From Pseudohongiellaceae bacterium (GTDB taxonomy: Bacteria; Pseudomonadota; Gammaproteobacteria; Pseudomonadales; Pseudohongiellaceae), in the NCBI GenBank assembly GCA_044338855.1, contig JBIIWP010000002.1, positions 3,796 through 67,795 on the forward strand: 64,000 nt of DNA, read 5' to 3'. Each line of letters opens with the position of its first letter. The stretch's first letter is position 1. Under the pieces are notes generated by a model. The model saw nothing but the letters and a program-made list of their open reading frames with translations, did not search any database and was not told the DNA's origin. A program made the translations under genes and the position numbers. Shown here piece by piece: positions 3,786-54,774 of the stretch.

Positions 3786-3882
3786 GATGAGGGGCACTTC
3801 CGGGAAAGTGCCGCATTATGGCGGCTGCTGAAGCGCCGGCTAACCAACTATTCCTGCAAAGCTTAGCAGCAGAACGGGAAAC

Positions 3883-5214: not shown

Positions 5215-5402
5215 GGCAGATATCCCGAAAAATGCAGCCGAAGAATAAGCAGATGCCCCGTCGGCGTCCAGCCTCGCCGCCCTTTCATACAATTGAATCT
5301 GCTAAGTAACGCTTACTTTCTTGGTTCGGGGTGCCTTGGGCGGTGGGTAGAGTGGCGGCCGTTGCTTGACTCTAAGCCCTTTTGAAGGACCCAGGACCCA
5401 AA

Positions 5403-7784
5403 ATGAAGAATGTCTACCGCTTCGCCGCGCTGGCACTGTCGTCCGGCGCAGCCCTCTCCGCATTCGCACAAACCGCTGCCGCACCGGCACTCGCTGCCCC
5501 TGCCGGCAACCTGCTGGTTGCTGCCAGTGGCATCGCCATTGAGGAAGTGCGCGTCACGTCCCGTCGCCGCGAGGAGCTGGCACAGGAAGTACCGATCCCC
5601 ATCACCGTGGTCAGCGGTGCACTGGTGGCCGACACCGGTGGCTTCAACGTGAACCGCATCAAGGAGCTGATCCCCTCGGTACAGCTGTACTCGTCGAACC
5701 CGCGCAACACCGCCATCAGTATCCGCGGCCAGGGCACCACCTTCGGTCTCACCAATGACGGCATCGATCCGGGTGTGGGCTTCTACATCGACGGCGTGTA
5801 CTTTGCGCGCCCTGCCATCACCACGCTGGACTTCATCGATGTGGATCGCATCGAAGTGCTGCGCGGCCCGCAGGGCACCTTGTATGGCAAGAACACCACG
5901 GCTGGCGCCTTCAACGTCACCACGCTGAAACCGCAGTTCGAGAATGACGCGCGCGTGGAATTGAGCGCGGGCAATTTTGATTTCGCGCAGATCAAGGGCA
6001 CAGTGACCGGCGGCCTCAGCGACAGCGTGGCCGGCCGCCTGTCGTTCACCTCCACCGAACGCGAAGGCAACATCAGGAACGTAGTGACGGGGCAGGATCT
6101 GAACAACCTGGAAAACTGGTCGCTGCGCGGCCAGCTGCTGTGGGAAGCCGGTGAAGGCACCGACGTGCGCCTCATCACCGAGCTGTCGCGTCAGGATCCC
6201 ACGGGCTATGCCCAGGTCTTCGCAGGTTCAGTCCCGAACAAGCGCTCCGCCTATCGCCAGTTTGAATCCATCATCGCCGATCTTGGCTATGCACCACCGA
6301 GCCGCGATCCCTTCGACCGTGTCGTGGACCACAACAGCGAATGGCGTTCGGGCAATGACATCGGCGGGGCTTCGCTGAACATCGACCACGAGATCTTCGG
6401 CGGCACGCTGACGTCCACCACGGCCTGGTACTTCTGGGACTGGCGTCCGTCCAACGACCGCGATTTCCTCGGGCTCAACGCGCTGGCGCTGTCCCAGGCA
6501 CCTTCCGACCATGAGCAGCTGACGCAGGAATTCCGCTGGGCCGGCGACCTCACCGACAGCGTAAGCGGCGTGTTCGGCGTGTTTGCCATCCAGCAGGAGC
6601 TGCAATCCGACCCCGTGCACCGCGAAGAGCTGGGCCCTGACCAGTGGCGTTTCGTGTCGCCCAATGCCGCCAGCGCAGCGCAGTACCGTACGCCCGGCCT
6701 GTTCGACGGCTTCGGCACCGACAGCAGCCCCGGTCTTGAAACCTTCAGCGCGGCGGTGTTCGGCCAACTGGATTGGCGCCTGGGTGACAACCTCAGCCTG
6801 CTGACCGGCCTGCGCTTCAATTATGACGAAAAGGATGTGAACTTCCAGCGCACCCGCAGCGGTGGCTCGGTACTCACGGACCCCGCCCTGCTGGCCCTGC
6901 GCAATGCGCAGTACAGCAACCAGAGCTTCACCTCGAAGATCGATGACGACAACGTCACCGGTACGCTGACACTTAACTACGCGCTGAACGATACCGTGAA
7001 TGTGTACGGCACCTACAGCACCGGCTTCAAGCCAGTGGGCCTCAACCTCGGTGGTCTCCCGACCGACGCTGGCCGAATCATGACTGAACTGGCCGTGATC
7101 AAGCCCGAGTACGTGCAGCACCATGAACTGGGCGTGAAGACGACTCCGCTGCCCAATGCCTGGCTGAACTTCGTTGCCTACCAGACCGATATCGAGGACT
7201 ACCAGGCGCAGGTACAAACAGCCGACATCGCGGTTAACCGCGGTTACCTCGCCAATGCCGAGGAAGTGAGGGTGCGTGGCTTCGAGATCGACGGTCGCAT
7301 CGTGTTCGGCAACTTGTCGCTGCAGGGTGCCTATGCATGGACTGATGGCAAGTACGAGTCCTTTACGAATGCACCGCTGCCGCTGGAAGAAGTGGGTTCG
7401 CCGGTGGCGTTCAAGGATATCAGCGGTGGCCTGCTGCCTGGTATCTCGAAGAATGCCGTATCGCTGAGTGGCGAGTACGCGCGCCCGTTGAACCTGCTGG
7501 GCACAAATGGCGAGTTCTTCGCCGGGGTGGACAGCTACTACCGTTCGGACTTCTCGTCGAGCCCGTCGCCGTCGCAGTTTCTCAACGTGGCCGGCTACAC
7601 CTTGCTGAATGCGCGTCTGGGCTTCCGCACTGACGACAGCTGGTCGGCCTTCCTGTGGTCACGCAACCTTACGGACAAGGACTACTTCGAACAGCTGCTG
7701 CCGGGTGCCGGCAACTATGGCCACTATGCCGCCGTCCTGGGTGATCCGCGTACCTGGGGAGCAACAGTGCGCTACACGTTCTGA
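5403..7784 (+). CDS. TonB-dependent outer-membrane receptor (paralog 1)
   Basis: Signal peptide MKNVYRFAALALSSGAALSAFAQ, plug motif VEVLRGPQGTLYGKNTTAGAFNV, and a ~790-aa barrel ending in VRYTF. Confidence 0.9.
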   Translation: MKNVYRFAALALSSGAALSAFAQTAAAPALAAPAGNLLVAASGIAIEEVRVTSRRREELAQEVPIPITVVSGALVADTGGFNVNRIKELIPSVQLYSSNPRNTAISIRGQGTTFGLTNDGIDPGVGFYIDGVYFARPAITTLDFIDVDRIEVLRGPQGTLYGKNTTAGAFNVTTLKPQFENDARVELSAGNFDFAQIKGTVTGGLSDSVAGRLSFTSTEREGNIRNVVTGQDLNNLENWSLRGQLLWEAGEGTDVRLITELSRQDPTGYAQVFAGSVPNKRSAYRQFESIIADLGYAPPSRDPFDRVVDHNSEWRSGNDIGGASLNIDHEIFGGTLTSTTAWYFWDWRPSNDRDFLGLNALALSQAPSDHEQLTQEFRWAGDLTDSVSGVFGVFAIQQELQSDPVHREELGPDQWRFVSPNAASAAQYRTPGLFDGFGTDSSPGLETFSAAVFGQLDWRLGDNLSLLTGLRFNYDEKDVNFQRTRSGGSVLTDPALLALRNAQYSNQSFTSKIDDDNVTGTLTLNYALNDTVNVYGTYSTGFKPVGLNLGGLPTDAGRIMTELAVIKPEYVQHHELGVKTTPLPNAWLNFVAYQTDIEDYQAQVQTADIAVNRGYLANAEEVRVRGFEIDGRIVFGNLSLQGAYAWTDGKYESFTNAPLPLEEVGSPVAFKDISGGLLPGISKNAVSLSGEYARPLNLLGTNGEFFAGVDSYYRSDFSSSPSPSQFLNVAGYTLLNARLGFRTDDSWSAFLWSRNLTDKDYFEQLLPGAGNYGHYAAVLGDPRTWGATVRYTF

Positions 7785-7790
7785 AAAAAC

Positions 7791-8555
7791 TCAAAGCGCC
7801 AGCACCAGACTGCTGGCCTCCACTGCCGCCTGTGCCGGCATCCCCGGCTTCAGGCCATGGCCTTGCGCGGCAAAGCCCACCAATTGCAGGCCACCGGGCA
7901 GCTCCAGCGTGAGCTCGGTGTCCTGGCGCGCCGTACCAACGCGCGCCACCACGCCATCCAGCACGTTGACCCCTTCTGCTGCTTTGATGCGAGCTGCAAT
8001 GCGCACAGCAGCTGCCTTGCACAGCAGCACCAGCGTCAGCTGTTCGGTAAGGCCAAGCAACTCCGCGCTTTCCCGCGTGATGAGAGACACCAGACGCTGG
8101 CCACCGGCGAGCTTGAGCTGCACCGCCACAGCTTCGCCACGTTTGGGCACACGTACCACCACGGCTGGCAGCTGGTTGCGCATGCTGGTGCGGAGGTTGA
8201 GCCGCTGCAGAGACTCCAGCACCGGCGCTGCGCCCGCCTTGCGCGAGAACTGCTGCAGCACCTGGTCTTTCATCGCCTGCATGCGCAGGGAGGCTTCCAG
8301 CAACTGCTCGCCTTGTTCGGTAAGACGCGCACCACCGCCGCCACTGCCGCCCACGGCTTTCTCGATGAGCGGCGCGCCCGCGAGGTTGCTGAGCGTCTCC
8401 AGTGCATGCCAGGCGGCCTTGTAGCTGATGCCGGCATCGCGTGCCGCCTGCGAAATGGAGCCCACCTCGCGAATCCGGCGCAGGATATCGATGCGCTTGT
8501 CTGCTGCGGTATGCCCCAGCGCGCTGTCGAGCGCTCCCTTCTTGTCCCTGCCCAT
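7791..8555 (-). CDS. modE: Molybdate-responsive transcriptional regulator ModE
   Basis: HTH DILRRIREVGSISQAARDAGISYKAAWHALETL plus GGSGGGGARLT, followed by two Mop/TOBE repeats (TSMRNQLPAVVV..., NVLDGVVARV...). Colinear with E. coli ModE. Confidence 0.85.
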   Translation of the reverse strand: MGRDKKGALDSALGHTAADKRIDILRRIREVGSISQAARDAGISYKAAWHALETLSNLAGAPLIEKAVGGSGGGGARLTEQGEQLLEASLRMQAMKDQVLQQFSRKAGAAPVLESLQRLNLRTSMRNQLPAVVVRVPKRGEAVAVQLKLAGGQRLVSLITRESAELLGLTEQLTLVLLCKAAAVRIAARIKAAEGVNVLDGVVARVGTARQDTELTLELPGGLQLVGFAAQGHGLKPGMPAQAAVEASSLVLAL

Positions 8556-8587
8556 GCTTGACCCCGATTTGATCGCGCTATACCTTT

Positions 8588-8612
8588 GCGCTATTCACGA
8601 CATGAATAGCGC
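8588..8612. promoter_or_regulatory. Perfect palindrome GCGCTATTCA-N5-TGAATAGCGC, candidate ModE operator (Mo-box-like)
   Basis: 10-bp perfect inverted repeat in the 66-bp modE / TonB-receptor divergent intergenic region. The CGCTAT...ATAGCG arms span 23 bp, similar to the CGnTATAT-N-ATATAnCG geometry of known ModE sites. Extra GCGCTAT copies lie at 8575-8581 and 8609-8615. Confidence 0.6.
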
Positions 8613-8621
8613 TATTGAAGC

Positions 8622-10979
8622 ATGTTTATCCTGCGTCGCTGCTTGCTGACCATCCCGGCCCTGCTGTTGCCGCTTGCTCTCGCGCCGGCAGCGTGCGGAG
8701 CGGAATCCGGCGAGGGTCCGCGTATCGAGACCATCGAAGTCTCGGCGCGCCTGCGCCGTGAGGACGCGCAGCGCGTGCCGCTGGCCATGTCCGTGGTCGG
8801 TGGCGACACGCTGCAGGCCACCAACACCATCAACGTGTCGCAACTGACACAGCTGGCGCCCAGCCTCAACTTCTCGTCGCCCAATCCGCGCAATACCGCG
8901 CTCACCATTCGCGGGCTCGGCAGCAGCGTGGTGGCTGTCGCCCAGGCCAATGACGGGCTGGAACCCGGCGTGGGCTTCTATGTGGATCAGGTGTACCACG
9001 CCAGGGCGGCCACGGCCGTGTTCGATTTTCTCGATCTCGAGCAGGTGGAAGTGCTGCGCGGCCCACAGGGCACACTGTTCGGCAAGAATACTACGGCTGG
9101 TGCCCTCAACATCAGCACCCGCAAGGCCAGCTTCACGCCGGACGCGGCTGTCGACCTCACCAGGGGCTCCTTCGGTTACGAGCAACTGCGCGTGTCGGTC
9201 AATGGACCACTCGTGGAGCAACGCCTGGCCGGGCGCCTGTCCCTGCTCAGCAACCGCCGCGATGGCCTGCTCCATAACACGCGCACTGGCCAGCGCCAGA
9301 ACGATGTGGACAACCAGGGTGTGCGCGGCCAACTGCGCTTCACGCCGTCGGCACGCTTTACGCTGGACCTTGCAGCAGACCACTACGTCATCGACAGCAA
9401 CTGCTGCACGCAGGTGCACCATGTCGTCGGCGCGAGCCTTCGTCCTGCTGCACGGCAGTATCCCGCGCTCGCTGCGGCGCAGGCCTATGCCCCTGCCTCT
9501 ACCGATCCCCATGCGCGCCTGACCAACATCGACGCTCCGCTGCAGGTGATGAGCAAGGAAGGCGGGCTGAGCGCCGTGGCGGCGTGGACCCTGGAGCGGC
9601 ATGTGCTGAGCTCCGTGAGCGCCTGGCGTTTCTGGGACTGGCTGGCTGCCAATGATCGCGACTTCACGGGGCTCGGCATCCAGACCCTGCAAGGCATTCC
9701 GTCGCGACAGGACCAGTACAGTCAGGAACTGCGCATCAGCAGCACCGGCGCTGACGGGTTCGACTATACCGCAGGGCTTTATGCCTTCACGCAACGCATC
9801 GAGGCACAACCGACCACGGCCTATGGCCCGCTCGCGGCATTCTGGCTGCTCGGCCCCGAACCGCAGATTCCCGCCAACCTGCTCGACGGTTACCGCAGTG
9901 ATGCCAGTACCCGCTTCGACTCCGACAGCTACGCCGTGTTCGCCGAAGGCGTGTTCCATCTGCCGGCCAATATCGATCTCGCGACCGGCCTGCGCTACAC
10001 CTGGGAAGACAAGCAAGGCCGCTTTTCCTCGGCAATCTCCGGAGGTCTTGCCACCAGCGACCCCGAGCTGCAACGTCGCCAGCGGTCGATACTGCATGCG
10101 CAGGACTATGCGGCAGCCGTGAGCGAAGACAACGTCTCCGGACGCCTCAACCTGTCCTGGCAGGGTCATGCGCAGTTCATGCCTTACCTGAGCTGGGCGC
10201 GCGGCTTCAAGTCCGGCGGCATCAACATGTCGGGGCTGCCGCTGACGCCGGACAACCTGCCCGCGCTGGCCACCGCCAGGATCGATCCGGAAGAAAACAC
10301 CACGCTGGAGATCGGCTTCAAGAGCCAGTGGCTGCAGGACCGCCTCAGCATCAACGTGGCCGGCTTCCGCACGCGCGTGCGCGACTTCCAGGCCAACGTG
10401 ATCGACAGCGGGCCCGGCGCGCTGCGTGGCTACCTCGCCAACATTCCCGAGGTGCGCGTGGATGGCGTGGAACTGGACCTGGCCTTGGCCCTCAGCGAGT
10501 CCCTGTCCGCAACGCTTTCCGGGGCGTGGACCGACGGGCGCTACCAACGCTATCCCAACGCGCCCTGCCCGCTCGAACGGACCGGCAGCCCGCTGGCCAC
10601 CTGCGATCTCTCCGGCACGCCACTGGCCGCGCTGCCGAAACAGGCGCTTTCGTTCGGCGCCCAGTACACGCGCCAGTTTGCCGCAGCGGGGCAGCGCGGA
10701 GAGCTGTGGCTGCGCGGCGATCTTGCCACCCGCAGCGCGATGAGCGGCGAAACCTCCAACTCGATCCATACCCGGCTGCCGGCACAGCAACTGGTGAACC
10801 TGATGCTGGGCTTCCGCAGCAGCGAAAACTGGGAGCTGACCCTGTGGTCGCGCAACCTGCTCGACGAGCAATACCTGCATAGCGTGACGGTGCAGGCCGG
10901 CAACTCCGGACTGGTGCTGGCCTTGCCGGGCGAGCCCCGCATCAATGGCATGACCCTGCGCCTGGTTTTCGGCAGCTGA
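8622..10979 (+). CDS. TonB-dependent outer-membrane receptor (paralog 2), divergent from modE
   Basis: Signal peptide MFILRRCLLTIPALLLPLALAPAACGA and plug motif VEVLRGPQGTLFGKNTTAGALNI. Clearly paralogous by eye to the 5403-7784 protein (PNPRNTA..IRG, DG..PGVGFY.D.VY.AR). Confidence 0.9.
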   Translation: MFILRRCLLTIPALLLPLALAPAACGAESGEGPRIETIEVSARLRREDAQRVPLAMSVVGGDTLQATNTINVSQLTQLAPSLNFSSPNPRNTALTIRGLGSSVVAVAQANDGLEPGVGFYVDQVYHARAATAVFDFLDLEQVEVLRGPQGTLFGKNTTAGALNISTRKASFTPDAAVDLTRGSFGYEQLRVSVNGPLVEQRLAGRLSLLSNRRDGLLHNTRTGQRQNDVDNQGVRGQLRFTPSARFTLDLAADHYVIDSNCCTQVHHVVGASLRPAARQYPALAAAQAYAPASTDPHARLTNIDAPLQVMSKEGGLSAVAAWTLERHVLSSVSAWRFWDWLAANDRDFTGLGIQTLQGIPSRQDQYSQELRISSTGADGFDYTAGLYAFTQRIEAQPTTAYGPLAAFWLLGPEPQIPANLLDGYRSDASTRFDSDSYAVFAEGVFHLPANIDLATGLRYTWEDKQGRFSSAISGGLATSDPELQRRQRSILHAQDYAAAVSEDNVSGRLNLSWQGHAQFMPYLSWARGFKSGGINMSGLPLTPDNLPALATARIDPEENTTLEIGFKSQWLQDRLSINVAGFRTRVRDFQANVIDSGPGALRGYLANIPEVRVDGVELDLALALSESLSATLSGAWTDGRYQRYPNAPCPLERTGSPLATCDLSGTPLAALPKQALSFGAQYTRQFAAAGQRGELWLRGDLATRSAMSGETSNSIHTRLPAQQLVNLMLGFRSSENWELTLWSRNLLDEQYLHSVTVQAGNSGLVLALPGEPRINGMTLRLVFGS

Positions 10980-16088: not shown

Positions 16089-16260
16089 CTTGGCTTTCCT
16101 GGTGAGGCTCCCCGGAGGAAGCGTGTGCGGGGATTATAGTGAATATGCGCTGACAGCACAGCGCGGCAGCAGACCAACACAGTAAGGTACCAGGGTTGGC
16201 TGGCTGTCAATTGCGGTAGTATTGCGCACCAATATCCCCGGGCAACAGGAACCTCCACAC

Positions 16261-18444
16261 ATGCCGACTTCGCGCCTTTCTTCTCTGGCCTCGTCACTGG
16301 CTTTGGCCGTCTGCAGCAGCATGTTACTGCAGGCCTGTGCGCCGGATTCGACACCGGCCCCCGCCGCACCTGAGCAGGCTGCTGCACCCGCAATGACAGC
16401 AGTTGCTGCGCTCGGCGCCAGCGGTCCCGACGCTGCGACGCTCGCCGCCGCAGCGAACAACGCAAGCGACTGGCTCAGCTATGGCCGCGACTACGCCGAG
16501 ACGCGCTTCAGCCCGCTGAACCAGATCAATGCCGACAATGTCACGCAACTGGGGCTCGCCTGGAGTTTTGACAGCGGCGAAGTGCGTGGCCACGAAGCGA
16601 CGCCACTGGTGCACGACGGCATCATTTACGCCACGCGCCCCTGGAGCAGCGTGTTCGCGCTGGACGCCCGCACCGGCGCACAGCTGTGGAACTTCGATCC
16701 GCAGGTAGACAAGAGCATGGGCTGGAAGGCCTGCTGCGATGTGGTGAACCGTGGTGTTGCGCTGTATGAAGGCAAGGTCTTCGTCGGCGCCCTCGACGGC
16801 CGCCTCATCGCACTCGATGCCCTTACCGGCGGCGTGCTGTGGGAAGTGCTGACGGTCGATCCCGAGCGCCCCTACACCATCACCGGTGCGCCACGGGTGG
16901 CTGACGGCAAGGTCATTATCGGCAACGGTGGCGCAGAACTGGGCTCGCGCGGTTACGTCACCGCCTACGACGCCAACACCGGTGCCGAGCAATGGCGCTT
17001 CTGGGTAGTACCAGGCAATCCTGCCGACGGCTTCGAGAATGAAGACATGGAGTTCGCTGCCACCACGTGGTCAGGCAACTGGTGGGAAGTGGGCGGAGGT
17101 GGCAATTCCTGGGATTCCATCATCTATGATCCCGAGGCGCGCCTCGTTTACGTCGGCACCGGCAACGGCGCGCCATGGAGCCACGAGCTGCGCAGCGAGG
17201 GTGTGGGTGACAATCTCTATCTGTCGTCCATCGTCGCGCTGCACGTAGACAGCGGCCGCGTGGCCTGGCACTACCAGACCACGCCCGCCGACAACTGGGA
17301 CTACACCGCCGTGCAACCGCTGATGCTGGCGGACATTCCCATCAACGGCGTGCTGCGCAAGGTCATCATGCAGGCGCCGAAGAACGGCTTTTTCTATGTC
17401 CTCGACAGAATCACCGGCGATCTCATTGCGGCTGACGCCTACGCCGAAGTGACCTGGGCCAGCGGTATCGACCTGGAGAGCGGCCGTCCGATCGAAACGC
17501 CGCAGGCGCGTTACGACAACGCCCTGAGCACCGTGATGCCCGGCCCCAGCGGCGCGCACAACTGGCATCCGATGTCGTTCAATCCGGTCACGGGTCTCGT
17601 GTACCTGCCCAGCATGCAGGGCACCTCGTTCCCCTACTCGGTCGAGGAAGGTTTCGTGCACCAGCCGGGCACCTGGAACATCGGCGTGAGCCGCAGCAAC
17701 TTCGCCAACCTCGAGCAGCGCCCGCAGGACCAGTATGCGGAAGGCACCGGCCCTGAGACGCGCTCGCCGGGAGCACTCATCGCCTGGGACCCGCTGACCC
17801 GCCAGCCGCGCTGGGTGGTGGACTATCCCTTCACGGTGAACGGCGGCACGCTGACCACGGCCGGTAATCTGGTGTTCCAGGGCGGCGCCGACGGCAAGCT
17901 GCGCGCGTTCACGGCGGATGCCGGTACTTTGCTGTGGGAAGTGGCGTTGGGCGTAGGCGTCATGGCGCCACCGATCACATATGAGCTCGACGGCGTGCAG
18001 TACCTCAGCGTTCTCGCAGGCTGGGGCGGTTCCGCTGGTCTGCTCAGTCCCGGCACCACTGGCACCTACAAAGGCGAAGGGCGTCTGTTCACGTTCGCAC
18101 TGGGTGGCGAGCAGGACTTTGAACCTGTGCGCGGACAGCCGCTGCCGGAACTGACCGCGATCGACTTCAATGACGACGCCGCGCTGCTGGCCCGTGGCGA
18201 AGACATCTACGGCCTGCGTTGCTCCGTCTGCCATGGCCGCAGCGCGGTGTCCGGTGGTTCCCTCGCCGATCTGCGTTATGCCAGCGCAGCCACCTACAAC
18301 ATTTTCCACGACATCGTGCGGCGCGGCGCCTACAGCGGGCTGGGCATGCCGAACTTCGGTGAGTTCATCACCGACGAGGATGCAGAGGCAGTCAAGCAGT
18401 GGTTGCTGGCGCGACGTGCTGCATTGATGGAGCAGGCACCATAG
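16261..18444 (+). CDS. PQQ-dependent quinohemoprotein alcohol dehydrogenase (type II ADH-like)
   Basis: Eight-bladed PQQ propeller signatures (DWLSYGRDY, GHEATPLV, W-rich repeats) and a C-terminal cytochrome c domain CSVCHG. The N-terminus has the lipobox LLQAC. ATG 16261 is preferred over the upstream start at 16222. Confidence 0.85.
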   Translation: MPTSRLSSLASSLALAVCSSMLLQACAPDSTPAPAAPEQAAAPAMTAVAALGASGPDAATLAAAANNASDWLSYGRDYAETRFSPLNQINADNVTQLGLAWSFDSGEVRGHEATPLVHDGIIYATRPWSSVFALDARTGAQLWNFDPQVDKSMGWKACCDVVNRGVALYEGKVFVGALDGRLIALDALTGGVLWEVLTVDPERPYTITGAPRVADGKVIIGNGGAELGSRGYVTAYDANTGAEQWRFWVVPGNPADGFENEDMEFAATTWSGNWWEVGGGGNSWDSIIYDPEARLVYVGTGNGAPWSHELRSEGVGDNLYLSSIVALHVDSGRVAWHYQTTPADNWDYTAVQPLMLADIPINGVLRKVIMQAPKNGFFYVLDRITGDLIAADAYAEVTWASGIDLESGRPIETPQARYDNALSTVMPGPSGAHNWHPMSFNPVTGLVYLPSMQGTSFPYSVEEGFVHQPGTWNIGVSRSNFANLEQRPQDQYAEGTGPETRSPGALIAWDPLTRQPRWVVDYPFTVNGGTLTTAGNLVFQGGADGKLRAFTADAGTLLWEVALGVGVMAPPITYELDGVQYLSVLAGWGGSAGLLSPGTTGTYKGEGRLFTFALGGEQDFEPVRGQPLPELTAIDFNDDAALLARGEDIYGLRCSVCHGRSAVSGGSLADLRYASAATYNIFHDIVRRGAYSGLGMPNFGEFITDEDAEAVKQWLLARRAALMEQAP

Positions 18445-18512: not shown

Positions 18513-19943
18513 TCACTGCAGCACGGCTGCTTCGATACCAAACCCGCTCAAGCTCATGGTGGCAGCATAGTAGGTAGCCAGCGCCACCTGGTGCGTCAGC
18601 GCCGCCTGAAGACGTTTGAGCTGGGCCTCGCCCACCTGGCGCTCACGCACGTTCAGCAGGAAAAAATCACTGATGCCCGCCGTAAACCGCTGCACTTCGG
18701 CTTCTGCGAGACGCCTGGATACCTCCAGCTCTTGCTGTGCGAGCACTTCCAGTTCCCGCGTGGCATCCAGATTAAGCAAGGCCTGACGTATATCGAGCCC
18801 CAACTGATCCTGCAGCTGGCGCATGGTGTGATCGATACCGTCCATCTCGGCACGCGCCGCTGCTGCCTTGCCGCTGGCGGTGCGGGTACGCAAGGGAACG
18901 CTGAAAACGAGTTTGGCTACATTGTCGGTACCCATCAGATTCACGGGCCCGCGACCAATGTCACGGGCCGCGTAGTACTCGAGGTCGACCTTGGGCTGCA
19001 TGCTGTTCAACGCAAGACGTTCGTCGAGTCCTGCCTGCTCGCGCGCTACTTCCAACTGGCGTATTTCCGGTCGCCTTTCGAGCACTGCCGCCACAATCTC
19101 AGGAATGGGACGCTCTAGCAGCTCTGACTGGTCGGGCGGCAACTCCAGCGTTGGCGCATAGACCGGCTGCTGCATACCGCCATCGACATCGCGCAGGTAC
19201 AACGCCAACTGCTGTGCCGCCATGTCGAGCTGGCGCTGGGCATCCACGACCAGACCCCGGCGCTGCAGGATGGCCTGGTCATTCTCAACCTGCAGGATTT
19301 CGGCAACGGCACCAGAGTCCACCTGCGTAGTCAAGGCTTCGCCGCGCGCATCGGCCAGCTGCAACAACTCCTCGTAAGCCGTCAGCAGGCGTGCCGCCAT
19401 GAGCCAGCGTGCGTAGGCAACATAGGCGGTTTCAAGGACATCCAGCTTTACGGCATTGAGTTCCTGCGAATCGGCCAGCAGTTCCAGCTGGCTTTCGATC
19501 ACGCTCGCACGACGCTCATCAATGTCGCGGTCACGCCACAGCGACAGGCCGACACCGGCGCGCGCTTCCCCGCCACTCAGCGTGAAACCTCCGTCCTCGT
19601 AGGTGGGAAAGTTGCCGTCGGAGATACGGTAGCCGGCGAAAGCACGGGCATTGAACAGGGGAAAGTTCTGTACGAGTCCGGCATCGCCACCGTGACCATC
19701 GTAATAGCCGCCAAGTCGCCCGCCCAGACTGCCGTCGATGCGCGGATCAAAGATACCTTCAGCCGCCATCACCAGCGCCTGACTGCTTTCTACCGAACTC
19801 TGCACCGCGAGGATGCGCGGCAGGTGGCGCAAGCTGCTGTCGAGCACCTGCTGCAAGGTCGTAGGCTCAGTGGCAGGCTGCGCCTGCAGCGGCAAGTGGC
19901 AAGAAACGAGGCCGAGCAAGACCAGTAACGCGCGCACCTTCAT
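18513..19943 (-). CDS. TolC-family outer-membrane efflux protein
   Basis: Signal peptide MKVRALLVLLGLVSCHLPLQA and two OEP-type repeats rich in coiled-coil sequence. Its start overlaps the HlyD stop (ATGA). Confidence 0.8.
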   Translation of the reverse strand: MKVRALLVLLGLVSCHLPLQAQPATEPTTLQQVLDSSLRHLPRILAVQSSVESSQALVMAAEGIFDPRIDGSLGGRLGGYYDGHGGDAGLVQNFPLFNARAFAGYRISDGNFPTYEDGGFTLSGGEARAGVGLSLWRDRDIDERRASVIESQLELLADSQELNAVKLDVLETAYVAYARWLMAARLLTAYEELLQLADARGEALTTQVDSGAVAEILQVENDQAILQRRGLVVDAQRQLDMAAQQLALYLRDVDGGMQQPVYAPTLELPPDQSELLERPIPEIVAAVLERRPEIRQLEVAREQAGLDERLALNSMQPKVDLEYYAARDIGRGPVNLMGTDNVAKLVFSVPLRTRTASGKAAAARAEMDGIDHTMRQLQDQLGLDIRQALLNLDATRELEVLAQQELEVSRRLAEAEVQRFTAGISDFFLLNVRERQVGEAQLKRLQAALTHQVALATYYAATMSLSGFGIEAAVLQ

Positions 19944-21082
19944 CTCGCAGCTCCCGTGTCGAGCACGCCACTGGCAGTGACGGCCGCATTGACCGGTGGA
20001 AAGTTGTTCATGCGGCGCCAGAGCTCATAGCCCAGCGGCACGGTCTCCAGCAGCACCCAGCCCTGTACGCTCGCGCCAAGGCGCACGAAGGATTCTGGTG
20101 GCCAGCCGCAATTGCCGGCCACGTTGAGGCCCGGGCGCATATCGACGCCGAAGCAGCCTGCTTCCAGCTTGTCCTCCGCCAGCAGCACGCGGAAGCTGCC
20201 ATCGACCCGGGCATTGGGTTCCACGAACACGACTTCGGCCGCGAAGGTGCCGACCGCGAATTCCGGCAGACCGCTGAACTGGAAGGCCGGCCAGCCATCG
20301 AACTGCAGGCGTGCCTTGCGTCCGGGATGCACGAGACCGATGTCGCGACCCTCCAGATAAATCTCCACTACCCGCTCCGTGCCGGCCGGCATGAAGGTCG
20401 CCAAGGCCTGACCGGCGCTGACCATCGTGGCGACGTCCCCGGCTTCCACATGCATGATGGTGCCGTAGCGCGGCGCCACCACCAACTGGCTGCCCTGACG
20501 CGACAGGTTCACTTCGGCATCGTTGACCTCGCCCTGCGCCTGTTCCTCGGTGATACGCAGTTGCTGCACACGGATCGAAGCCTGCTCGAGGTCGAGGCGC
20601 GAGGCCAGGCCATCGGCGAACAGCGACTCCCGACGCACCAGATCAAGGCCAGCCGTGCGCGTGGCGTCGCGTGCCGCCTCAAGCTTGCGCCTGGCAGCCT
20701 GCAGCTGCGCATCGAGGCGCGCTACCAGTTCATCGTCTACGTCCACGATGCGCACGAGGGGATCACCGGCTTTTACGGTGGATGCATCGCTTACATACCA
20801 TTCCGCGATACGTCCCGAGACCATGGCACTGATGTTCTGCACGCGGTCGCGCGGATCCAGTGTGGTCACCCGACCCGGTCCCGTGGTGGTCTGCACCCAG
20901 GGCATCAGGGCGAGAACTGCGCCTGTCAACAGCAGGGTGAGCAGTACCAACCAGGCGACGACACGCAGGACCCGCGGCAGGCGGATTTCCTGCAGCGCCG
21001 AGAATGCCGCAAGGTGCGGTGCGACGTAGGCATGGTCGAAGGAAAATTTTCCTGCGCGTTTTCTGTCATGAGCTGCAGCCAT
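19940..21082 (-). CDS. HlyD-family periplasmic adaptor (type I secretion / ABC-type tripartite efflux)
   Basis: Short cytoplasmic N-terminus, single TM (VVAWLVLLTLLLTGAVLALMPW), a lipoyl-like segment (ISAMVSGRIAEWYV...GDPLVRI) and a coiled coil. ATG 21082 lies 4 nt after the ABC stop. Confidence 0.8.
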   Translation of the reverse strand: MAAAHDRKRAGKFSFDHAYVAPHLAAFSALQEIRLPRVLRVVAWLVLLTLLLTGAVLALMPWVQTTTGPGRVTTLDPRDRVQNISAMVSGRIAEWYVSDASTVKAGDPLVRIVDVDDELVARLDAQLQAARRKLEAARDATRTAGLDLVRRESLFADGLASRLDLEQASIRVQQLRITEEQAQGEVNDAEVNLSRQGSQLVVAPRYGTIMHVEAGDVATMVSAGQALATFMPAGTERVVEIYLEGRDIGLVHPGRKARLQFDGWPAFQFSGLPEFAVGTFAAEVVFVEPNARVDGSFRVLLAEDKLEAGCFGVDMRPGLNVAGNCGWPPESFVRLGASVQGWVLLETVPLGYELWRRMNNFPPVNAAVTASGVLDTGAAR

Positions 21083-21086
21083 GGTC

Positions 21087-22757
21087 TCAGGCTCCTGTAT
21101 CGGCACTAAGAATGAGGTAATCATCATGCAGTTCCAGCTGCGTATCGGCGCCCGGAACTTCGCGCTGGCTGAATGCAATGAGGATGCGGCCGCTGCTGCG
21201 CCAGGCGTTGATAAAGGCCTCCAGATGCGGCCGCGAGAGGCAGTCGAATATCTGCGTCAGCACCAGTACCCGCGCCTCGCCGAGCAGGGCGTGCGCAAGT
21301 TTCACCCGCAGCGCCTGGTCCAGCAACAGTGGCGCGCCACTGTAGCTGAGCTCGGTGTCGAGTCCTTCCGGGAGCTCTCGCACGCAGGTATCGAGATCCA
21401 GCAAAGACAGCACCTCGTGCAGGCGCGACGGGGTCACGGTGCCACCCGCCAGAGCCAGGTAATCCCGCAGCGTCATCGGTACCAGGGTCTGGCGGTCCAG
21501 CACACACAGCAACGAGCGCTGCTGCGGCAGACTGCAGGAGAGCAGGTCGAGCTCGCCCAGCCACATGCCACCACCACGGACCTGCACATCGCGTTGCAGC
21601 AAGCCACAGAACAGATTCTGGATGCGACCGTTGGGGGCGGACGCTGCGACCACACTGCCGGGCGCCAGCTCCAGATTCAGCGTCATTTCGCCACGCACAG
21701 TCACTGCCTGCAGCTTGCGCAGCTGCAGGGCTCCCTGCGGGATCGCTGCCGGCGGCAGAATCACCAGCTTCTCGACCTCCACCTCATCCAGGCGATAAAG
21801 TTCTTCGGCCGCTGCACAAACGTCGTAGTAGTAACCAAGATAGCCTGAGAGCTGCGGCAGCGAATACAGGATGGCTGACATGATGAGTTCGGCCGCCACC
21901 AGTTGCCCCAGTGTCAGTTCACCGCGGATCACGAGCCAGCCGCCGATGGCCAGCAGTACGGCACTGGCCAGCGCATACAGCAGCAAAAAGCTCAGCAACT
22001 GGCGGAACCCATGGCGGAAGTGCGAGACCTGCGCATCCAGGTGGCTGCGGATCAAGCGTTCACTTTCCTGCAGGGCGGCGTCGGTGCAGTGCTGCGTCTT
22101 GAAGAAGGCATTGTTCACGGCAAGGCCCTGCAGCCAGGCTGCCGTGTCGTGCTTGGCTTGTGACAGCTCGAAAGAGGAGGTGATGGCCTTCCAGCTCCAC
22201 AGCTTCCACACCAGCCACAGCAGCAGCACCAGTCCGACACTGAAAATGAAAAAGTAGAAGTGGTACAGGGAGACCATGATGAAACCGATCACCCCCTGGA
22301 ACAGCAGCGTGAACCCGTTGCTGAGGATGTAGGGTACGTTCTTCTTCAGCGTCATGATGTCGAAGAAGCGGTTGAACAAGGCAGCACGCCGGCCCGGATC
22401 GAAGTAACCGATCTGCGCCAGGAGGCCAGTCATGGCGATCTCCGCCGTGATACGGGTAAAGAGGCGGCGGCTGAACAGCTCCATGGTCCAGGCACGCAGG
22501 GCGTACAGCACCCCTGACACCACCAGCAGCACGAACAACAGCACCCCGATACTGATAACGGCACTGAACAGACCGGTGTTGGACACGCTGTCGATCAGCA
22601 GTTGGACCGACAAGGGGATGGCCAGGGTCAACAGGGATATGGCTATGCTGTAGACCAGTACCACCCTGTAGAACGCACTCTCCGGTCCCAGCATGCGCGC
22701 AAACAAGCGCCTGAATGCTGCTGGCCCTGGTAACTCATGTGCTGCTGTTGCCGCCAT
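21087..22757 (-). CDS. ABC-exporter-like half transporter with a fully degenerate nucleotide-binding domain
   Basis: The N-terminal six-TM ABC_membrane-like region is intact. In the C-terminal NBD-like region Walker A reads AASAPNGRI, the signature reads LSYSG, Walker B reads VLVLTQ and the H-loop His is Gln. A GGGGGAG SD precedes the ATG. Confidence 0.75.
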   Translation of the reverse strand: MAATAAHELPGPAAFRRLFARMLGPESAFYRVVLVYSIAISLLTLAIPLSVQLLIDSVSNTGLFSAVISIGVLLFVLLVVSGVLYALRAWTMELFSRRLFTRITAEIAMTGLLAQIGYFDPGRRAALFNRFFDIMTLKKNVPYILSNGFTLLFQGVIGFIMVSLYHFYFFIFSVGLVLLLWLVWKLWSWKAITSSFELSQAKHDTAAWLQGLAVNNAFFKTQHCTDAALQESERLIRSHLDAQVSHFRHGFRQLLSFLLLYALASAVLLAIGGWLVIRGELTLGQLVAAELIMSAILYSLPQLSGYLGYYYDVCAAAEELYRLDEVEVEKLVILPPAAIPQGALQLRKLQAVTVRGEMTLNLELAPGSVVAASAPNGRIQNLFCGLLQRDVQVRGGGMWLGELDLLSCSLPQQRSLLCVLDRQTLVPMTLRDYLALAGGTVTPSRLHEVLSLLDLDTCVRELPEGLDTELSYSGAPLLLDQALRVKLAHALLGEARVLVLTQIFDCLSRPHLEAFINAWRSSGRILIAFSQREVPGADTQLELHDDYLILSADTGA

Positions 22758-22809: not shown

Positions 22810-22860
22810 ATGAAGTCTTTTACTTCATGAATCCCGGTTCTTGATAGTTTTTTAATATCA
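22810..22860. promoter_or_regulatory. Two palindromes in the AT-rich region upstream of the exporter operon
   Basis: ATGAAGT-N5-ACTTCAT (22810-22828) and TGATA-N9-TATCA (22842-22860), within the 146-bp low-GC gap between the symporter stop and the ABC start. Confidence 0.4.
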
Positions 22861-22903
22861 CGCACGCACCAAATCAGGGCGCTTGCAGACCACTTTTCGT
22901 TGG

Positions 22904-24295
22904 TCAGACAACAGCTTGTCGGCGGGTCAGCCACAAGCCCGACACCATGCCGAATCCAGAGGCCAGCAAGCCCATGAACATCGCCGGGACCGGAAAGTCG
23001 GTCTGGCCGTAGGCAAACCACAGATATGCCAGCAGACCCAGCAGCATGGCGGCGAGGGCCGCTCCGGCCGAAGCGCGGGGCACAAACAGCGCGCACAGCA
23101 TCGGGACCAGGATGGATACGGCGCCCAGAATGGAGGACTCCGCGACAAGATCATAGATATTGCCGCTGTTCAGGGCCAGCACGGTGGCAATGATCGCCAT
23201 CACCAGTACCGACCCACGCGAGATCCACAGCAGTTCGCGGTCACTCGCCGCTGGCCGCAACAGCGGTTTGATGAGGTTTTCCGCCAGGATCGACGATGGC
23301 GCCAGCAGGGCGCCACTGCAGGTACTGAAGATGGCCGAAATCAGCGCGCCATAGAACAGTACCTGCAGCCACAGCGGCGCATGCAGCGACACCAGTGTCA
23401 GCAGCGCATTCTGCGTATCGCCCTGCAACAACTGCGGTTCCAGGCGCAGGACCACCAGCCCAAGGTACAGGGGCAGCAGCGCGAACAGCAGGTAGAGAAA
23501 AGCACCGCAGAAGGTGGAACGTACCGCGATCGTCTCGCTGCGCGCAGCGTTGGCGCGCTGGAAGATGTCCTGCGAGGCCAGTGAGCCCAGCCCCAGCGTC
23601 AACCAGGCTGCCGTCCAGTCCAGCCAGCTCATGCCGTTGGCAGCCGTCGGCACGAATTCGAAGAACTGCGCGCGCGGTGGCTCCATCAAGGTGGCGAAGC
23701 CCACACGATTGGTGAAGAACACACAGAGCAGCAGCAGTCCCGTGATGATCACGAGGCTCTGCACGAAGTCCGTCAGCGACACGGCCCACATGCCTCCGGC
23801 GCTGGTGTAGGCCGTAACGATCACGGCACTGAGCAAGAGGCCACTGTGCGGCGAAAGTCCGAACACTGTCTCGAACAGCAAGCTCAGCGCGATGAGCTGT
23901 GCTGCGATGTAACCGACGAAGGTAAGGATCATGCAGATGGCCGCGACGCTTTCGACGCGCGCGCCGTAATGCTGGCGGAACAGGTCGCCCAAAGTCAGCA
24001 GGTTGCGACGGTACAACGGCCGCACCAGGAACAAGGCAAACAGCACGAGACAGAGAAACCCGCCGAAGGGATCCTCGATGACACCGAGCAGCCCGTGCTG
24101 CATGAATTCGGCACTGGCGCCGAACACCGTTTCGGAGCCGAACCACAGTGCAAACAACGCCATGGAGCTCAGCATGAACGGCAAGCGGCGGCTGGCATTG
24201 ATGAAGTCGCCGCTGCCGCGGATCAGCGTGGCCGCGACGAGGCCAATGCACAGGGTGACAAGCAGGTACAGCGCGACGAAGAAGCCCAGAGACAT
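22904..24295 (-). CDS. Sodium:solute symporter family (SSF) transporter
   Basis: ~13 TM segments. GGMWAVSLTDFVQ resembles the SSF signature (compare PutP GGFLAVSWTDTVQ). ATG 24295 (MSLGFFVALYLL) lies 7 nt after the deacetylase stop. Confidence 0.8.
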   Translation of the reverse strand: MSLGFFVALYLLVTLCIGLVAATLIRGSGDFINASRRLPFMLSSMALFALWFGSETVFGASAEFMQHGLLGVIEDPFGGFLCLVLFALFLVRPLYRRNLLTLGDLFRQHYGARVESVAAICMILTFVGYIAAQLIALSLLFETVFGLSPHSGLLLSAVIVTAYTSAGGMWAVSLTDFVQSLVIITGLLLLCVFFTNRVGFATLMEPPRAQFFEFVPTAANGMSWLDWTAAWLTLGLGSLASQDIFQRANAARSETIAVRSTFCGAFLYLLFALLPLYLGLVVLRLEPQLLQGDTQNALLTLVSLHAPLWLQVLFYGALISAIFSTCSGALLAPSSILAENLIKPLLRPAASDRELLWISRGSVLVMAIIATVLALNSGNIYDLVAESSILGAVSILVPMLCALFVPRASAGAALAAMLLGLLAYLWFAYGQTDFPVPAMFMGLLASGFGMVSGLWLTRRQAVV

Positions 24296-24302
24296 GCAGC
24301 GC

Positions 24303-25031
24303 TCAGGCGTCGAAGAAGCGTTGCACGCGCCGCTGCAACAGTTCTTGCAACGACTGCTGCAGCTCATCGCGGCTGAAATGGTAGAAGCCTTCGGCGTAGC
24401 TTACCTGTCGCGGCAGGCTGAACGTACGCAGCCTGTTCATGGCTTCAACGATCTCGATGTAGTTGTTCTCATCGAGCTGGCTCAGGTACTGCATCATGAG
24501 CGCGCGCTTGCCGGGCATCTGCGCGGTGATGTCGACTAGGCGGTTGACGGGATTCTGCACGCTGATTTCATAGGCTATCGCTGCAGGTCGTTGTGCTTCC
24601 GGCAACTGTTGCAGCGCGGCCCACACCAGCAGCGCGGTGGCGCGATGATCCGGGTGCGGCTCGTACATGCCGGGAAGGAACACGCAAGCCGGTGCCCGCT
24701 CGCTGATCAGGTCGGCGAGTACGCGGACCAAGGCGTCCTGCGGCACGAGCCCGCGATCCGGTTCACCCAGGAAAAATACGCTGGCCAGGCCCAGGGCTGC
24801 TGCAACCGCCCACGCCTCACGTTGGCGCACGCGCACCAGATCATCCTGCTGACCACCAAGCGCACCATCGGTCATGATGACCAGATGTACCTGGATGCCG
24901 GCATCGCGCGCGCGCAACAAGGTCCCGCCCATGCCAAAGGTTTCGTCATCTGCGTGCGGAGCGAAGACCAGCCAGGGTCCCGGAGCAAGGTCGCTGACGC
25001 TGTAGGGAACGATGTGTGCTTCGCTGATCAT
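24303..25031 (-). CDS. PIG-L / LmbE family N-acetyl deacetylase
   Basis: PHADDETFGMGG and HPDH zinc-binding motifs. Start ATG 25031 forms an ATGA overlap with the upstream GNAT gene. Confidence 0.8.
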   Translation of the reverse strand: MISEAHIVPYSVSDLAPGPWLVFAPHADDETFGMGGTLLRARDAGIQVHLVIMTDGALGGQQDDLVRVRQREAWAVAAALGLASVFFLGEPDRGLVPQDALVRVLADLISERAPACVFLPGMYEPHPDHRATALLVWAALQQLPEAQRPAAIAYEISVQNPVNRLVDITAQMPGKRALMMQYLSQLDENNYIEIVEAMNRLRTFSLPRQVSYAEGFYHFSRDELQQSLQELLQRRVQRFFDA

Positions 25032-26011
25032 TGGAAATCCGTGTCTCCGGGCAACAGCCACCAGTGGTCACGCAGTTCAGCAGGCGCCGGACCGTCTGTC
25101 CAGATGTTGGTGGGAATGCTGACACCCATGTCGCGCTCGGTCCGGCCTTGTGTGGGCAGGCAGTCAGTGAAGGCGGCGGAGCACCAGGTCAGCACGCGCG
25201 CGCAGCCCAATGCCGCAGCTTCTGCCTGGGCAAGCGCCAGCAAGGTCGGGAAACTGCCCGGCGCGCCCAGCAGGTCCATCAGCATGCAGCTGTCGCCGTC
25301 ATGCCGCAGGACGAACACGCCAGCTACTGCCCCGGTGAGGCGCGCGCGGCAGAGCACCACGCGATACTGTCGTTCAGGATGCTCGAGGTAGCGCCAACGT
25401 AGCCAGGCGGGCGTTTTGCTGCCGACGATGTGCTGGGCAAAGCCTTGCTGCAGTTGCTGCCACGCCTGGTCCAGCGCGGCCTCATGGCGGGGAAAATCCG
25501 CTGCAGTAATCATGGTGCGGCGATACAGGTGCTGCGACCAGTGGCGCGCGGCGGGCCAGGCGAGCTCCAGTACTTCGCCAACCGGCGCATAAAAGCCGAG
25601 CAGCTCAGCCAGCTTCATTACGCGGCGATTGGGAAAACCGTAGGCCAGCGGGTAGGGCTTGCCGTAGCCCAGGTAGTGTTGGGCGAATCCGGTGAAGGCG
25701 AGGTAGAAGGGACTGCCACTGCGCACAGCATGGCGCTCACTGGGCGCCACCATGACATCCGTGATCTGCACGGCAGCTGTCTCCTTGCCTTGCCACAGCA
25801 CCTTGCGACCCATACCACCGTAGTGTGCAACGAGTCGCTCGCCGTCGAACACCAGCGTGGCACAGCCGGTGTCACGGGCATATTTCCACTGCCACAGCGC
25901 GGCGCTCATCTCCTGCCCGAATACCTCGTGGAACAGGGCACGCACCTGCGCCGCATCCCCTGCTTGCAGGGTACGGCATGTATAGAGCTTGGTACTGACA
26001 GGAGCGGACAC
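25028..26011 (-). CDS. GNAT-fold acyltransferase (~327 aa, two-lobed)
   Basis: N-terminal pattern LQAGDAAQVRALFHEVFG...WQWKY...GERLVAHYGG...QITDVMVAP is typical of GNAT/Acetyltransf-type proteins as I recall them. No precise subfamily assignable. Confidence 0.55.
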   Translation of the reverse strand: MSAPVSTKLYTCRTLQAGDAAQVRALFHEVFGQEMSAALWQWKYARDTGCATLVFDGERLVAHYGGMGRKVLWQGKETAAVQITDVMVAPSERHAVRSGSPFYLAFTGFAQHYLGYGKPYPLAYGFPNRRVMKLAELLGFYAPVGEVLELAWPAARHWSQHLYRRTMITAADFPRHEAALDQAWQQLQQGFAQHIVGSKTPAWLRWRYLEHPERQYRVVLCRARLTGAVAGVFVLRHDGDSCMLMDLLGAPGSFPTLLALAQAEAAALGCARVLTWCSAAFTDCLPTQGRTERDMGVSIPTNIWTDGPAPAELRDHWWLLPGDTDFQ

Positions 26012-48198: not shown

Positions 48199-48354
48199 CT
48201 GACGGGTCCTGGCGTTAGTCCTGGCCCCGCGGTCATTGGCACAGCGCGGGGTGTTCAATGTGGAAAAATCGAGGAAAACCGGAACTCCCTGACGTGGTCC
48301 CGGACTTGCCGTTATAGTAGACCCATCCCCGCACCCCGACCAAGGCCCCGTTCC

Positions 48355-54665: not shown

Positions 54666-54774
54666 GTAGGGGCGGGCCCCCGCGCCCGCCCGTGTCTGGG
54701 CGTCAATCGAACCACGGGCGGGCGCGGGGCAAGAGTCAATCGCACCACGGGCGGGCGCGGGGGCCCGCCCCTAC
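54666..54774. repeat. REP cluster (same family as 32015-32078), with two GTCAATCGnACCACGGGCGGGCGCGG modules flanked by inverted GTAGGGGCGGGC arms
   Basis: Direct sequence comparison with 32015-32078. The arms are GTAGGGGCGGGCCCCCGCGCCCGCCC ... GGGCGGGCGCGGGGGCCCGCCCCTAC. Confidence 0.85.

Follow-up and report, generated by a model that had tools for sequence, protein, structure and literature searches.

How an envelope-spanning export duct can be served by an ATP-binding cassette (ABC) protein that has lost its ATP site is the question raised by a three-gene locus in a 64,000-nucleotide stretch of contig JBIIWP010000002.1 from a Pseudohongiellaceae bacterium (assembly GCA_044338855.1), which is referred to here as the window. 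An ABC-exporter-fold pseudo-ATPase gene (21087-22757, minus strand; 556-residue open reading frame (ORF)) encodes a type IV exporter transmembrane domain (TMD) followed by a degenerate nucleotide-binding domain (pseudo-NBD). Downstream on the same strand lie the genes of a HlyD-type periplasmic adaptor (19940-21082; 380 residues; Pfam HlyD_3, HlyD_D23 and Biotin_lipoyl_2) and of an OEP/TolC-family outer-membrane factor (OMF; 18513-19943; 476 residues; Pfam OEP with 103 bits in three stretches). Only 4 nt (gacc) separate the TGA stop codon of the ABC gene from the adaptor ATG, and the adaptor stop and the OMF start overlap as ATGA. A first-pass annotation, made from the sequence alone, had described three packed minus-strand genes and an intact frame of 556 ABC codons; the ORFs, the gap and the overlap were all recovered when the sequence was re-read. 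Its core claim, that the ABC component lacks a competent ATP site, is supported by the profile, alignment, structure-prediction and comparative evidence given below. The locus descends from a type I secretion system (T1SS)-like ABC system, the ABC component of which became a pseudo-ATPase.

The fold of the ABC protein is retained throughout. Pfam detects ABC_membrane (PF00664) at residues 33-297 with 39 bits against a cut-off of 28, and no match to ABC_tran (PF00005) at E≤0.1. With the same tool, the exporter at 54771-56594, which the first-pass annotation had used as an internal control, gives 141 bits for ABC_membrane and 110.8 bits for ABC_tran and carries the canonical motifs GASGSGKST, LSGGEKQR and ILVFDEATS. 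The missing ABC_tran match is therefore not a tool artefact. NCBIfam full-length T1SS and MsbA profiles align to the protein through residue ~519, far under their cut-offs, and phmmer matches residues 11-547 to type IV exporters of the PDB, TM288 among them; none of the curated Pfam or NCBIfam models captures the pseudo-NBD. A single-chain AlphaFold2 (AF2) model, built on a 72-sequence alignment, has a mean predicted local distance difference test (pLDDT) score of 89.8 and a predicted TM-score of 0.80, with a pLDDT of 86-97 in the C-terminal domain. Foldseek superposes this model over 550-570 columns on TM287/288, PCAT1, HlyB (8dck_A), MsbA, TmrAB and PrtD (5l22_B) with a TM-score of 0.83, up to 0.84, at only 15-20% identity to these solved exporters. 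The TMD (residues ~20-325; 21783-22700, minus strand) comprises six long helices in the AF2 secondary structure and carries a canonical intracellular loop 1 (ICL1) motif and a GGWLV...GQLVAAE block in transmembrane helices 5 and 6 (TM5-TM6); the helices and the PF00664 match agree with the earlier description of an intact six-helix domain. In the model, the pseudo-NBD (residues ~340-556; 21090-21740, minus strand) is a true NBD homologue in which the RecA-like and helical subdomains are retained, with no ATP-binding motif. The protein does not have the MacB-type (type VII) fold, since its TMD is N-terminal, adopts the type IV fold and has no periplasmic domain.

The motifs of the pseudo-NBD were placed by a HMMER alignment to TM288 and a MAFFT alignment to the control exporter (all coordinates on the minus strand). 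The Walker A or P-loop equivalent (21612-21647; A371-L382, AASAPNGRIQNL) lacks both the Lys and a Gly-rich loop; the GxxGxGK[ST] motif corresponds to S373-L382 (SAPNGRIQNL); both alignments place it where the first-pass annotation did (21621-21647). Arg414 (21516-21518), in the family motif D-R, occupies the position of the Q-loop Gln. At the signature (21315-21329), the TM288 and control alignments agree on LLLDQ (L477-Q481), from which the signature Ser is also gone. The LSYSG segment (470-474) that had been taken for the signature lies 7 residues upstream of this register, in an X-loop-like TELSYSG. The Walker B assignment of VLVLTQ (V497-Q502, 21252-21269) holds: Thr501 and Gln502 replace the Asp-Glu pair, and Asp505 of a D-x-h-[DE] motif lies just downstream (the whole segment spans 21243-21269). 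The H-loop equivalent (21162-21179; I527-R532, IAFSQR) contains no His, as had been claimed, and there is none within ±4 residues; the reported replacement by Gln is less certain, because the His column falls on Phe529 with HMMER and on Gln531 with MAFFT. The A-loop aromatic residue is replaced by Thr in the window protein and by Arg, Ala or Lys in the family. As judged from these alignments, all six nucleotide-contacting motifs (A-loop, Walker A, Q-loop, signature, Walker B and H-loop) are absent. Mis-registration, which the first-pass annotation had named as a way in which it could be wrong, did affect two registers, but no canonical motif is rescued when they are corrected.

The same state is found across the family. 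A word-indexed search returned at least 1123 homologues, the best 120 of which were aligned with the window protein to give 121 sequences. These 120 homologues (40-100% identity, ~555-590 residues) come from Pseudohongiellaceae, Wenzhouxiangellaceae, Glaciecola, Kordiimonas (for example sp. SCSIO 12603/12610) and Erythrobacter and are mostly annotated with PF00664 only. The public names of homologues are either 'ABC transporter ATP-binding protein' or 'transmembrane domain-containing protein'. The column of the Walker A Lys holds Gln, Leu, Arg or Phe, and Lys in 0 of 121 sequences, within a P-loop region that carries indels. The Walker B Asp column holds Gly, Glu, Thr, Asn, Asp or Ser, the Glu column holds Gln, Asp, His or Glu, and a His occurs at the best-aligned H-loop column in only 11 of the 121. 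Both Gly residues of the signature are lost, and most members share the consensus L-[ST]-x-x-[QE] at this position. New residues have become nearly invariant instead, including an Arg at position 414 (119/121), Asp505 (120/121), Gly396, Leu487 and a Y-F-T-x-R motif at the H-loop. An exhaustive representative search (985 clusters at E≤1e-30) recovered ~555-residue representatives down to ~28% identity, all of which are without a P-loop (negative for the Walker A regular expression). ABC_membrane is found in 72/72 family members and weak ABC_tran matches in 28 of them. In a neighbour-joining tree of the TMD alone, one clade without any Walker-A-bearing member takes in 58 of the 63 short degenerate representatives; the other five nest among Walker-A-bearing sequences, which implies additional independent losses. 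The topology indicates that the main degenerate clade goes back to a single ancient loss of the ATP site, with further losses outside it. Close orthologues with canonical motifs, the finding that the first-pass annotation had said would point to strain-specific decay, were not among the homologues, which are degenerate from 87% to ~28% identity.

Selection has acted on the pseudo-NBD as well as on the TMD. Ratios of nonsynonymous to synonymous divergence (dN/dS; Nei-Gojobori, against three orthologues of 76-87% identity) lie at 0.06-0.10 in the TMD and at 0.13-0.23 in the pseudo-NBD; the adaptor has 0.085-0.13 and the OMF ~0.095. The values are approximate because dS is ~0.9-1.4. By this measure the pseudo-NBD appears relaxed about two-fold relative to the TMD yet clearly constrained. 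The comparison of orthologues and of their dN/dS, which had been proposed as a check in the first-pass annotation, thus finds motifs that are degenerate family-wide in a domain that is still constrained. The distribution of the constraint within the domain is unusual. In the TMD, 96 of 306 columns are at least 90% conserved. The P-loop region has a majority frequency of 0.40 with no column at or above 0.9 and is among the least conserved parts of its domain, whereas the block of the X-loop and signature helix (465-493) has a majority frequency of 0.67 with 8 of 29 columns at or above 0.9 and is conserved like the TMD. Relative to a working NBD, conservation in the alignment is inverted: the P-loop drifts, and the X-loop, the signature helix and the D-loop-like Asp are held. 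In canonical exporters, the X-loop, the signature helix, the Q-loop position and the D-loop contact the coupling helices and the opposing NBD. Overall, the alignments and substitution ratios indicate that the degenerate state is old, occurs widely among marine Proteobacteria and is subject to purifying selection, which implies that the protein must work without canonical ATP binding.

The next-nearest relatives reveal how this state may have been reached. These are proteins of ~700-770 residues at ~30-37% identity with genuine ABC_tran domains that pass Pfam (for example P0183, P0198, P0218, P0223 and P0244), which retain the Walker A motif GxxGxGK[ST] and a near-canonical LSxGQ. Their best models, all sub-threshold, are LssB, HlyB, NHLM and PrtD. 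They have an Arg at the Q-loop position and a D-x-h-D motif after Walker B, and all conserved TMD residues of the degenerate family are common to them. An extra N-terminal domain of ~170-200 residues in these relatives has no Pfam or PDB sequence match; a C39-like identity was considered for this domain and dropped for the same reason. Two of their loci (L017, with P0244 at 352-2601, and L018, with P0223 at 5242-7398) are single-ABC trios with homologous adaptors and OMFs. Motif states were counted in 133 full-length representatives, 61 of which have a real Walker A. The Walker A Lys occurs together with the Asp-Glu pair and the His in 7, with Asp-Glu in 11 and with the Asp only, without the catalytic Glu, in 43; the remaining 72 have no P-loop, 11 of them with a chance Lys in the aligned column. 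A Gln at the aligned Q-loop position is found in 0 of the 133, and a canonical [LVFY]SGG[QEM] signature in 0 of 150 representatives. On these counts, the NBD degenerates by degrees within the clade while the tripartite architecture stays the same, and the family of the window protein thus stands at the far end of a loss of the ATPase that runs through the whole clade.

The two partner components are maintained together with the ABC protein. The adaptor comprises an N-terminal transmembrane anchor followed by lipoyl, coiled-coil and β-barrel regions, and its best PDB relatives are HlyD (8dck_C), EmrA and MacA. It is more conserved than the ABC protein at the same divergence (61% against 45% identity). 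Its membrane-proximal PWVQTT...DRVQ...VSGRI segment is invariant in the window and in the adaptors of loci L001-L021, and Ser163, Tyr165 and His166 in the periplasmic TM3-TM4 turn of the ABC protein are likewise invariant; from this shared invariance, the PWVQTT segment and the turn may form a contact pair. The cytoplasmic tail of the adaptor was considered as a conserved partner of the pseudo-NBD and rejected, being only semi-conserved and truncated in distant members. The OMF has a signal peptide-like N-terminus and is found in every sufficiently long locus, and an adaptor gene accompanies the ABC gene in every locus examined. The trio of ABC, adaptor and OMF genes, in most cases with stop and start codons that overlap, was observed in nine loci (L001-L009) from Pseudohongiellaceae, Glaciecola and other gammaproteobacteria, and also in Kordiimonas (L011), on a 4.1-Mb contig (L012/13), in the close relatives L014/L016 and in the most distant degenerate loci L019/20 and L021.

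A second ABC half-transporter was searched for in the same loci. Within ±8-10 kb, a second type IV ABC gene is present in 0 of 15 loci of the degenerate family (28-87% identity) and at neither of the two loci of Walker-A-bearing relatives; the neighbourhood of L021 contains only an unrelated MalK-type importer and an ABC-2 exporter besides the trio. No neighbouring gene beyond the trio is conserved across the loci compared. In or adjoining the operon of the window there is no second ABC exporter, C39 domain, repeats-in-toxin (RTX) repeat or double-glycine (GG)-leader ORF; in the window as a whole, neither an RTX nonapeptide within a coding frame nor a small ORF with a GG leader was found. The Pfam, cargo and locus scans are in line here with the first-pass annotation, which had listed no second ABC, C39 or cargo gene in the operon. 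Local regulators were observed in distant members. A divergent LysR-type regulator gene lies directly upstream of the ABC gene in L012/13 and in the Kordiimonas locus (L011, 8692-9597; L012, 8491-9549), and a small HTH_24 regulator gene has the same position in L021 (7671-7982). These genes hint at small-molecule-responsive control.

The trio shares several features with T1SSs such as HlyB/HlyD/TolC, PrtDEF and LssB/LssD, including the three-gene architecture of ABC protein, membrane fusion protein and OMF and the type IV exporter fold. The best NCBIfam profiles for the ABC protein are LssB, HlyB and PrtD, and the best solved relative of the adaptor is HlyD. Scores against the curated T1SS models (TIGR01846, TIGR01842, TIGR03375, TIGR01843 and TIGR01844) are low, however: the ABC protein reaches 63.6-70.8 bits against cut-offs of 510-725 (70.8 against 693 for one model), the adaptor 63.9 against 208.65 and the OMF 17.3 against 225. 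The trio also differs from a T1SS in having no ATP site, no C39 or C39-like (CLD) domain and no RTX or GG-leader cargo gene nearby, and in its short adaptor (380 residues), the cytoplasmic tail of which is not universally conserved. Since it lacks the defining ATPase features and misses every curated cut-off, the system should not be classed among the ABC ATPases of T1SSs.

From these findings of sequence, structure and evolution, which are solid, we infer a mechanism in which a nucleotide-free homodimer acts as a facilitator that feeds the adaptor/TolC-like duct; we favour it tentatively, the considerations for and against being close to balanced. The inner-membrane ABC-fold protein would work as a homodimer, and its pseudo-NBDs would be no motor but a module for dimerisation and transmission that operates without nucleotide. 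The TMD pair would pass a cytoplasmic or inner-membrane substrate into the duct. Because the duct opens to the medium, substrate that leaves down its gradient would in effect not return, even without ATP, so that the system would act as a one-way relief valve; such a function is in keeping with the local transcription regulators and the lack of cargo genes. Coupling to the proton-motive force could be an alternative energy source, and the data speak neither for nor against it. The substrate is probably a small molecule, because local LysR and helix-turn-helix regulators are found in distant members and cargo genes are absent. The argument for such a module is that the TMD and the coupling motifs are intact and that the elements of NBD-TMD and NBD-NBD contact are kept, which suggests a pseudo-NBD that dimerises and transmits but binds no nucleotide. 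By the established architecture of ABC proteins, any dimer containing a subunit with neither a Walker A nor a signature would have two defective composite sites, and this, together with the lack of an adjacent partner gene, makes a homodimer more likely than a heterodimer. A D-loop mutant of TAP is a passive facilitator and demonstrates that the exporter fold can translocate without hydrolysis (PMC4242082).

Several points weigh against the facilitator homodimer. The TAP facilitator still required nucleotide binding for gating (PMC4242082), so a cycle that runs wholly without nucleotide would be without experimental precedent. The homodimer is deduced only from the missing neighbouring partner at the loci examined, and the L-[ST]-x-x-[QE] sequence kept at the signature in most members could face the Walker A of a partner. 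The dN/dS values are approximate at the dS noted above. No family-specific charged TMD residue marks a new site for a coupling ion; Glu290 and the other conserved TMD residues were considered for this function and rejected, as all are common to the Walker-A-bearing relatives.

The residual signature would also fit the idea that the protein is one half of an obligate heterodimer, in which a canonical ABC half-transporter encoded elsewhere in the genome binds and hydrolyses ATP. There are many heterodimeric type IV exporters with a single degenerate site (PMC7756269), TM287/288 is the best match of the window protein in both sequence and fold, and one canonical ABCB-type exporter is encoded in the window itself (54771-56594). 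We nevertheless consider this arrangement unlikely, although it deserves attention. The canonical exporter of the window is only ~24-25% identical to the pseudo-ATPase and is an independent gene beside dxs. The genes of heterodimeric exporter pairs are normally adjacent, and no second type IV ABC gene lies within ±8-10 kb of the trio at any of the 15 loci of the degenerate family or the two of Walker-A-bearing relatives. Known degenerate subunits also keep a Walker A and a canonical signature; both are gone here, which would impair both composite sites, and in the window protein even the signature Ser has been lost. Another reading is recent strain-specific decay, in which an ordinary T1SS ABC transporter gene is on its way to becoming a pseudogene. 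Beyond the degenerate motifs themselves nothing further points this way, and very recent decay, an option left by the first-pass annotation, is refuted: the frame of 556 codons is intact, the fold model is confident, the state is common to all homologues from 87% to ~28% identity with 58 of 63 short representatives in one clade, and the pseudo-NBD evolves at a dN/dS of 0.13-0.23.

Two further explanations concern the role of the protein. It could have a non-transport function as a static scaffold, a plug or a sensor that nucleates or gates the duct, for example as a dimer fixed in the outward-facing state that forms a channel for substrates of the periplasm or the outer leaflet, or as a signalling receptor. 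There are ABC proteins, CFTR and SUR among them, that have taken on a new function as channel or regulator. With a root-mean-square deviation of 3.5-3.9 Å (query-normalised TM-score (TMq) 0.83-0.84), the AF2 monomer agrees better with outward-facing or occluded, ATP-bound structures than with inward-facing ones (5-6.5 Å, TMq 0.69-0.76), but the state preferred by AF2 is weak evidence. The higher conservation of the adaptor than of the ABC protein, the invariant periplasmic turn (S163-Y165-H166) and the invariant PWVQTT segment are also compatible with a structural role. However, the TMD interior and the coupling-helix motifs are conserved as in the relatives that bear an ATP site, which argues for a moving transporter, and a static plug needs no pseudo-NBD held at a dN/dS of ~0.2; a role outside transport is distinctly unlikely. 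Alternatively, the pseudo-NBD could bind a nucleotide or another cytoplasmic ligand at a non-canonical site and be gated by it, like an ATP-gated facilitator. The nearest relatives keep a Walker A mostly without the catalytic Glu (43/61), suggesting that binding without hydrolysis is a stable state, and the conserved Arg414, Arg422, Lys486 and Asp505 could form a new site. We regard such gating as quite improbable, as no residue of the P-loop region is conserved in the family and indels are found there, and the A-loop aromatic residue, the Walker A Lys, the Walker B Asp and the His are all absent together with any Pfam ABC_tran match.

The trio can also be compared with other known systems. 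The heterodimeric exporters TM287/288, TmrAB, BmrCD and TAP1/2 resemble the window protein in having non-catalytic substitutions at the Walker B Glu, the H-loop and the signature. They differ in that only one of their two composite sites is degenerate, that the degenerate subunit still binds ATP through an intact Walker A and that the partner gene is adjacent (described in part in PMC7756269), whereas the window protein has lost every motif and has no partner gene beside it. The TAP D-loop mutant, CFTR and SUR share with the proposed mechanism an ABC fold that translocates or conducts without a hydrolytic power stroke, but nucleotide binding is still needed in these proteins, and the window protein has no recognisable site. 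EmrAB-TolC, AcrAB-TolC and the AaeAB 'relief valve' likewise combine an adaptor and a TolC duct with a drive other than ATP; their inner-membrane components have the folds of the major facilitator superfamily (MFS), the resistance-nodulation-division (RND) superfamily and the PET family, with known proton-coupling residues, whereas that of the window trio has the ABC fold, in which the comparison of conserved TMD residues picked out no coupling site. The aaeR-aaeXAB system has a local LysR-type regulator, resembling the LysR genes upstream of distant family members. Among open-access papers, no ABC exporter that lacks both sites in a tripartite system was found, and in reviews of tripartite pumps and degenerate sites the only cases named are single degenerate sites and degenerate C39 domains. 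The family may comprise the first ABC-exporter-fold transporters to run an envelope-spanning duct without nucleotide, at the end of a series within one T1SS-like clade that leads from hydrolysis-competent through Walker-A-only members, which would bind without a catalytic Glu, to nucleotide-free ones; its pseudo-NBDs would be passive, for dimerisation and transmission, and the flux would be powered by the gradient of the substrate or by proton-motive force. We put this forward as a possibility that is still somewhat doubtful.

ABC exporters are defined by the ATP-driven dimerisation of their NBDs, and the family is a natural probe of what the TMD and the coupling machinery do without the motor. 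The series of members with a full catalytic set, with a Walker A only and with neither could separate the steps of the ABC cycle that need binding, hydrolysis or neither. If the trio is truly a passive or proton-motive-force-driven relief valve, it would represent a new energisation class for tripartite efflux; if a partner is needed in trans, it would be an unrecognised kind of split ABC system. The public name 'ABC transporter ATP-binding protein' is misleading for this family.

Upstream of the trio, an AT-rich block (GTGATATTAAAAAACTATCAA; 22841-22861, minus strand) with a TGATA/TATCA dyad (TGATA-N9-TATCA, 22842-22860) sits in a 146-nt gap, ~85-105 nt upstream of the ABC start codon. Its columns are invariant in an alignment of the window with L014, L015 and L016, and the block is kept in these three relatives (76-87% identity), in which the flanking intergenic sequence has diverged. 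On this conservation, it may be the promoter or an operator of the trio. A simple scan for sigma-70 promoters and terminators around the operon gave no match to the sigma-70 consensus and no convincing signal.

Beyond this gap, a sodium:solute symporter (SSF) gene (22904-24367), a PIG-L/LmbE-type deacetylase gene (24303-25061) and a GNAT-like acetyltransferase gene (25028-26011) lie on the minus strand and overlap one another. Their synteny with Tex and the trio is limited to relatives of at least 76% identity. Membership in the system was considered for these three genes and rejected, as they are absent at loci of 28-47% identity and the 146-nt gap separates them from the ABC gene; they look like a separate uptake and deacetylation operon. 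In six Pseudohongiellaceae loci, a HIT-like protein of ~150 residues with a HAHIFPR motif is encoded just upstream of the ABC gene (for example L001, 9300-9743; L003, 3852-4334; L007, 5673-6137; L009, 9381-9845), with purE and purK near. This ORF was considered as a cargo or regulator and dropped because the window has no copy; it and the pur genes probably reflect lineage synteny.

Two other ORFs of the window were inspected in relation to the trio. The 1702-residue ORF at 43687-48795 (minus strand), a candidate for a giant T1SS cargo, was rejected as an Lhr-type helicase. The ORF at 39367-41031 (plus strand) has two tandem matches to the control NBD and no ABC_membrane-like match, an ABC-F-like, soluble layout that makes it unlikely as a partner of the trio. 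On the other side of the locus, a gene for a quinohaemoprotein pyrroloquinoline quinone (PQQ) alcohol dehydrogenase (16222-18444, plus strand) is convergent with the trio, and the region 2367-10979 encodes two TonB-dependent receptors, an Alginate_exp-family porin and a sodium:dicarboxylate symporter.

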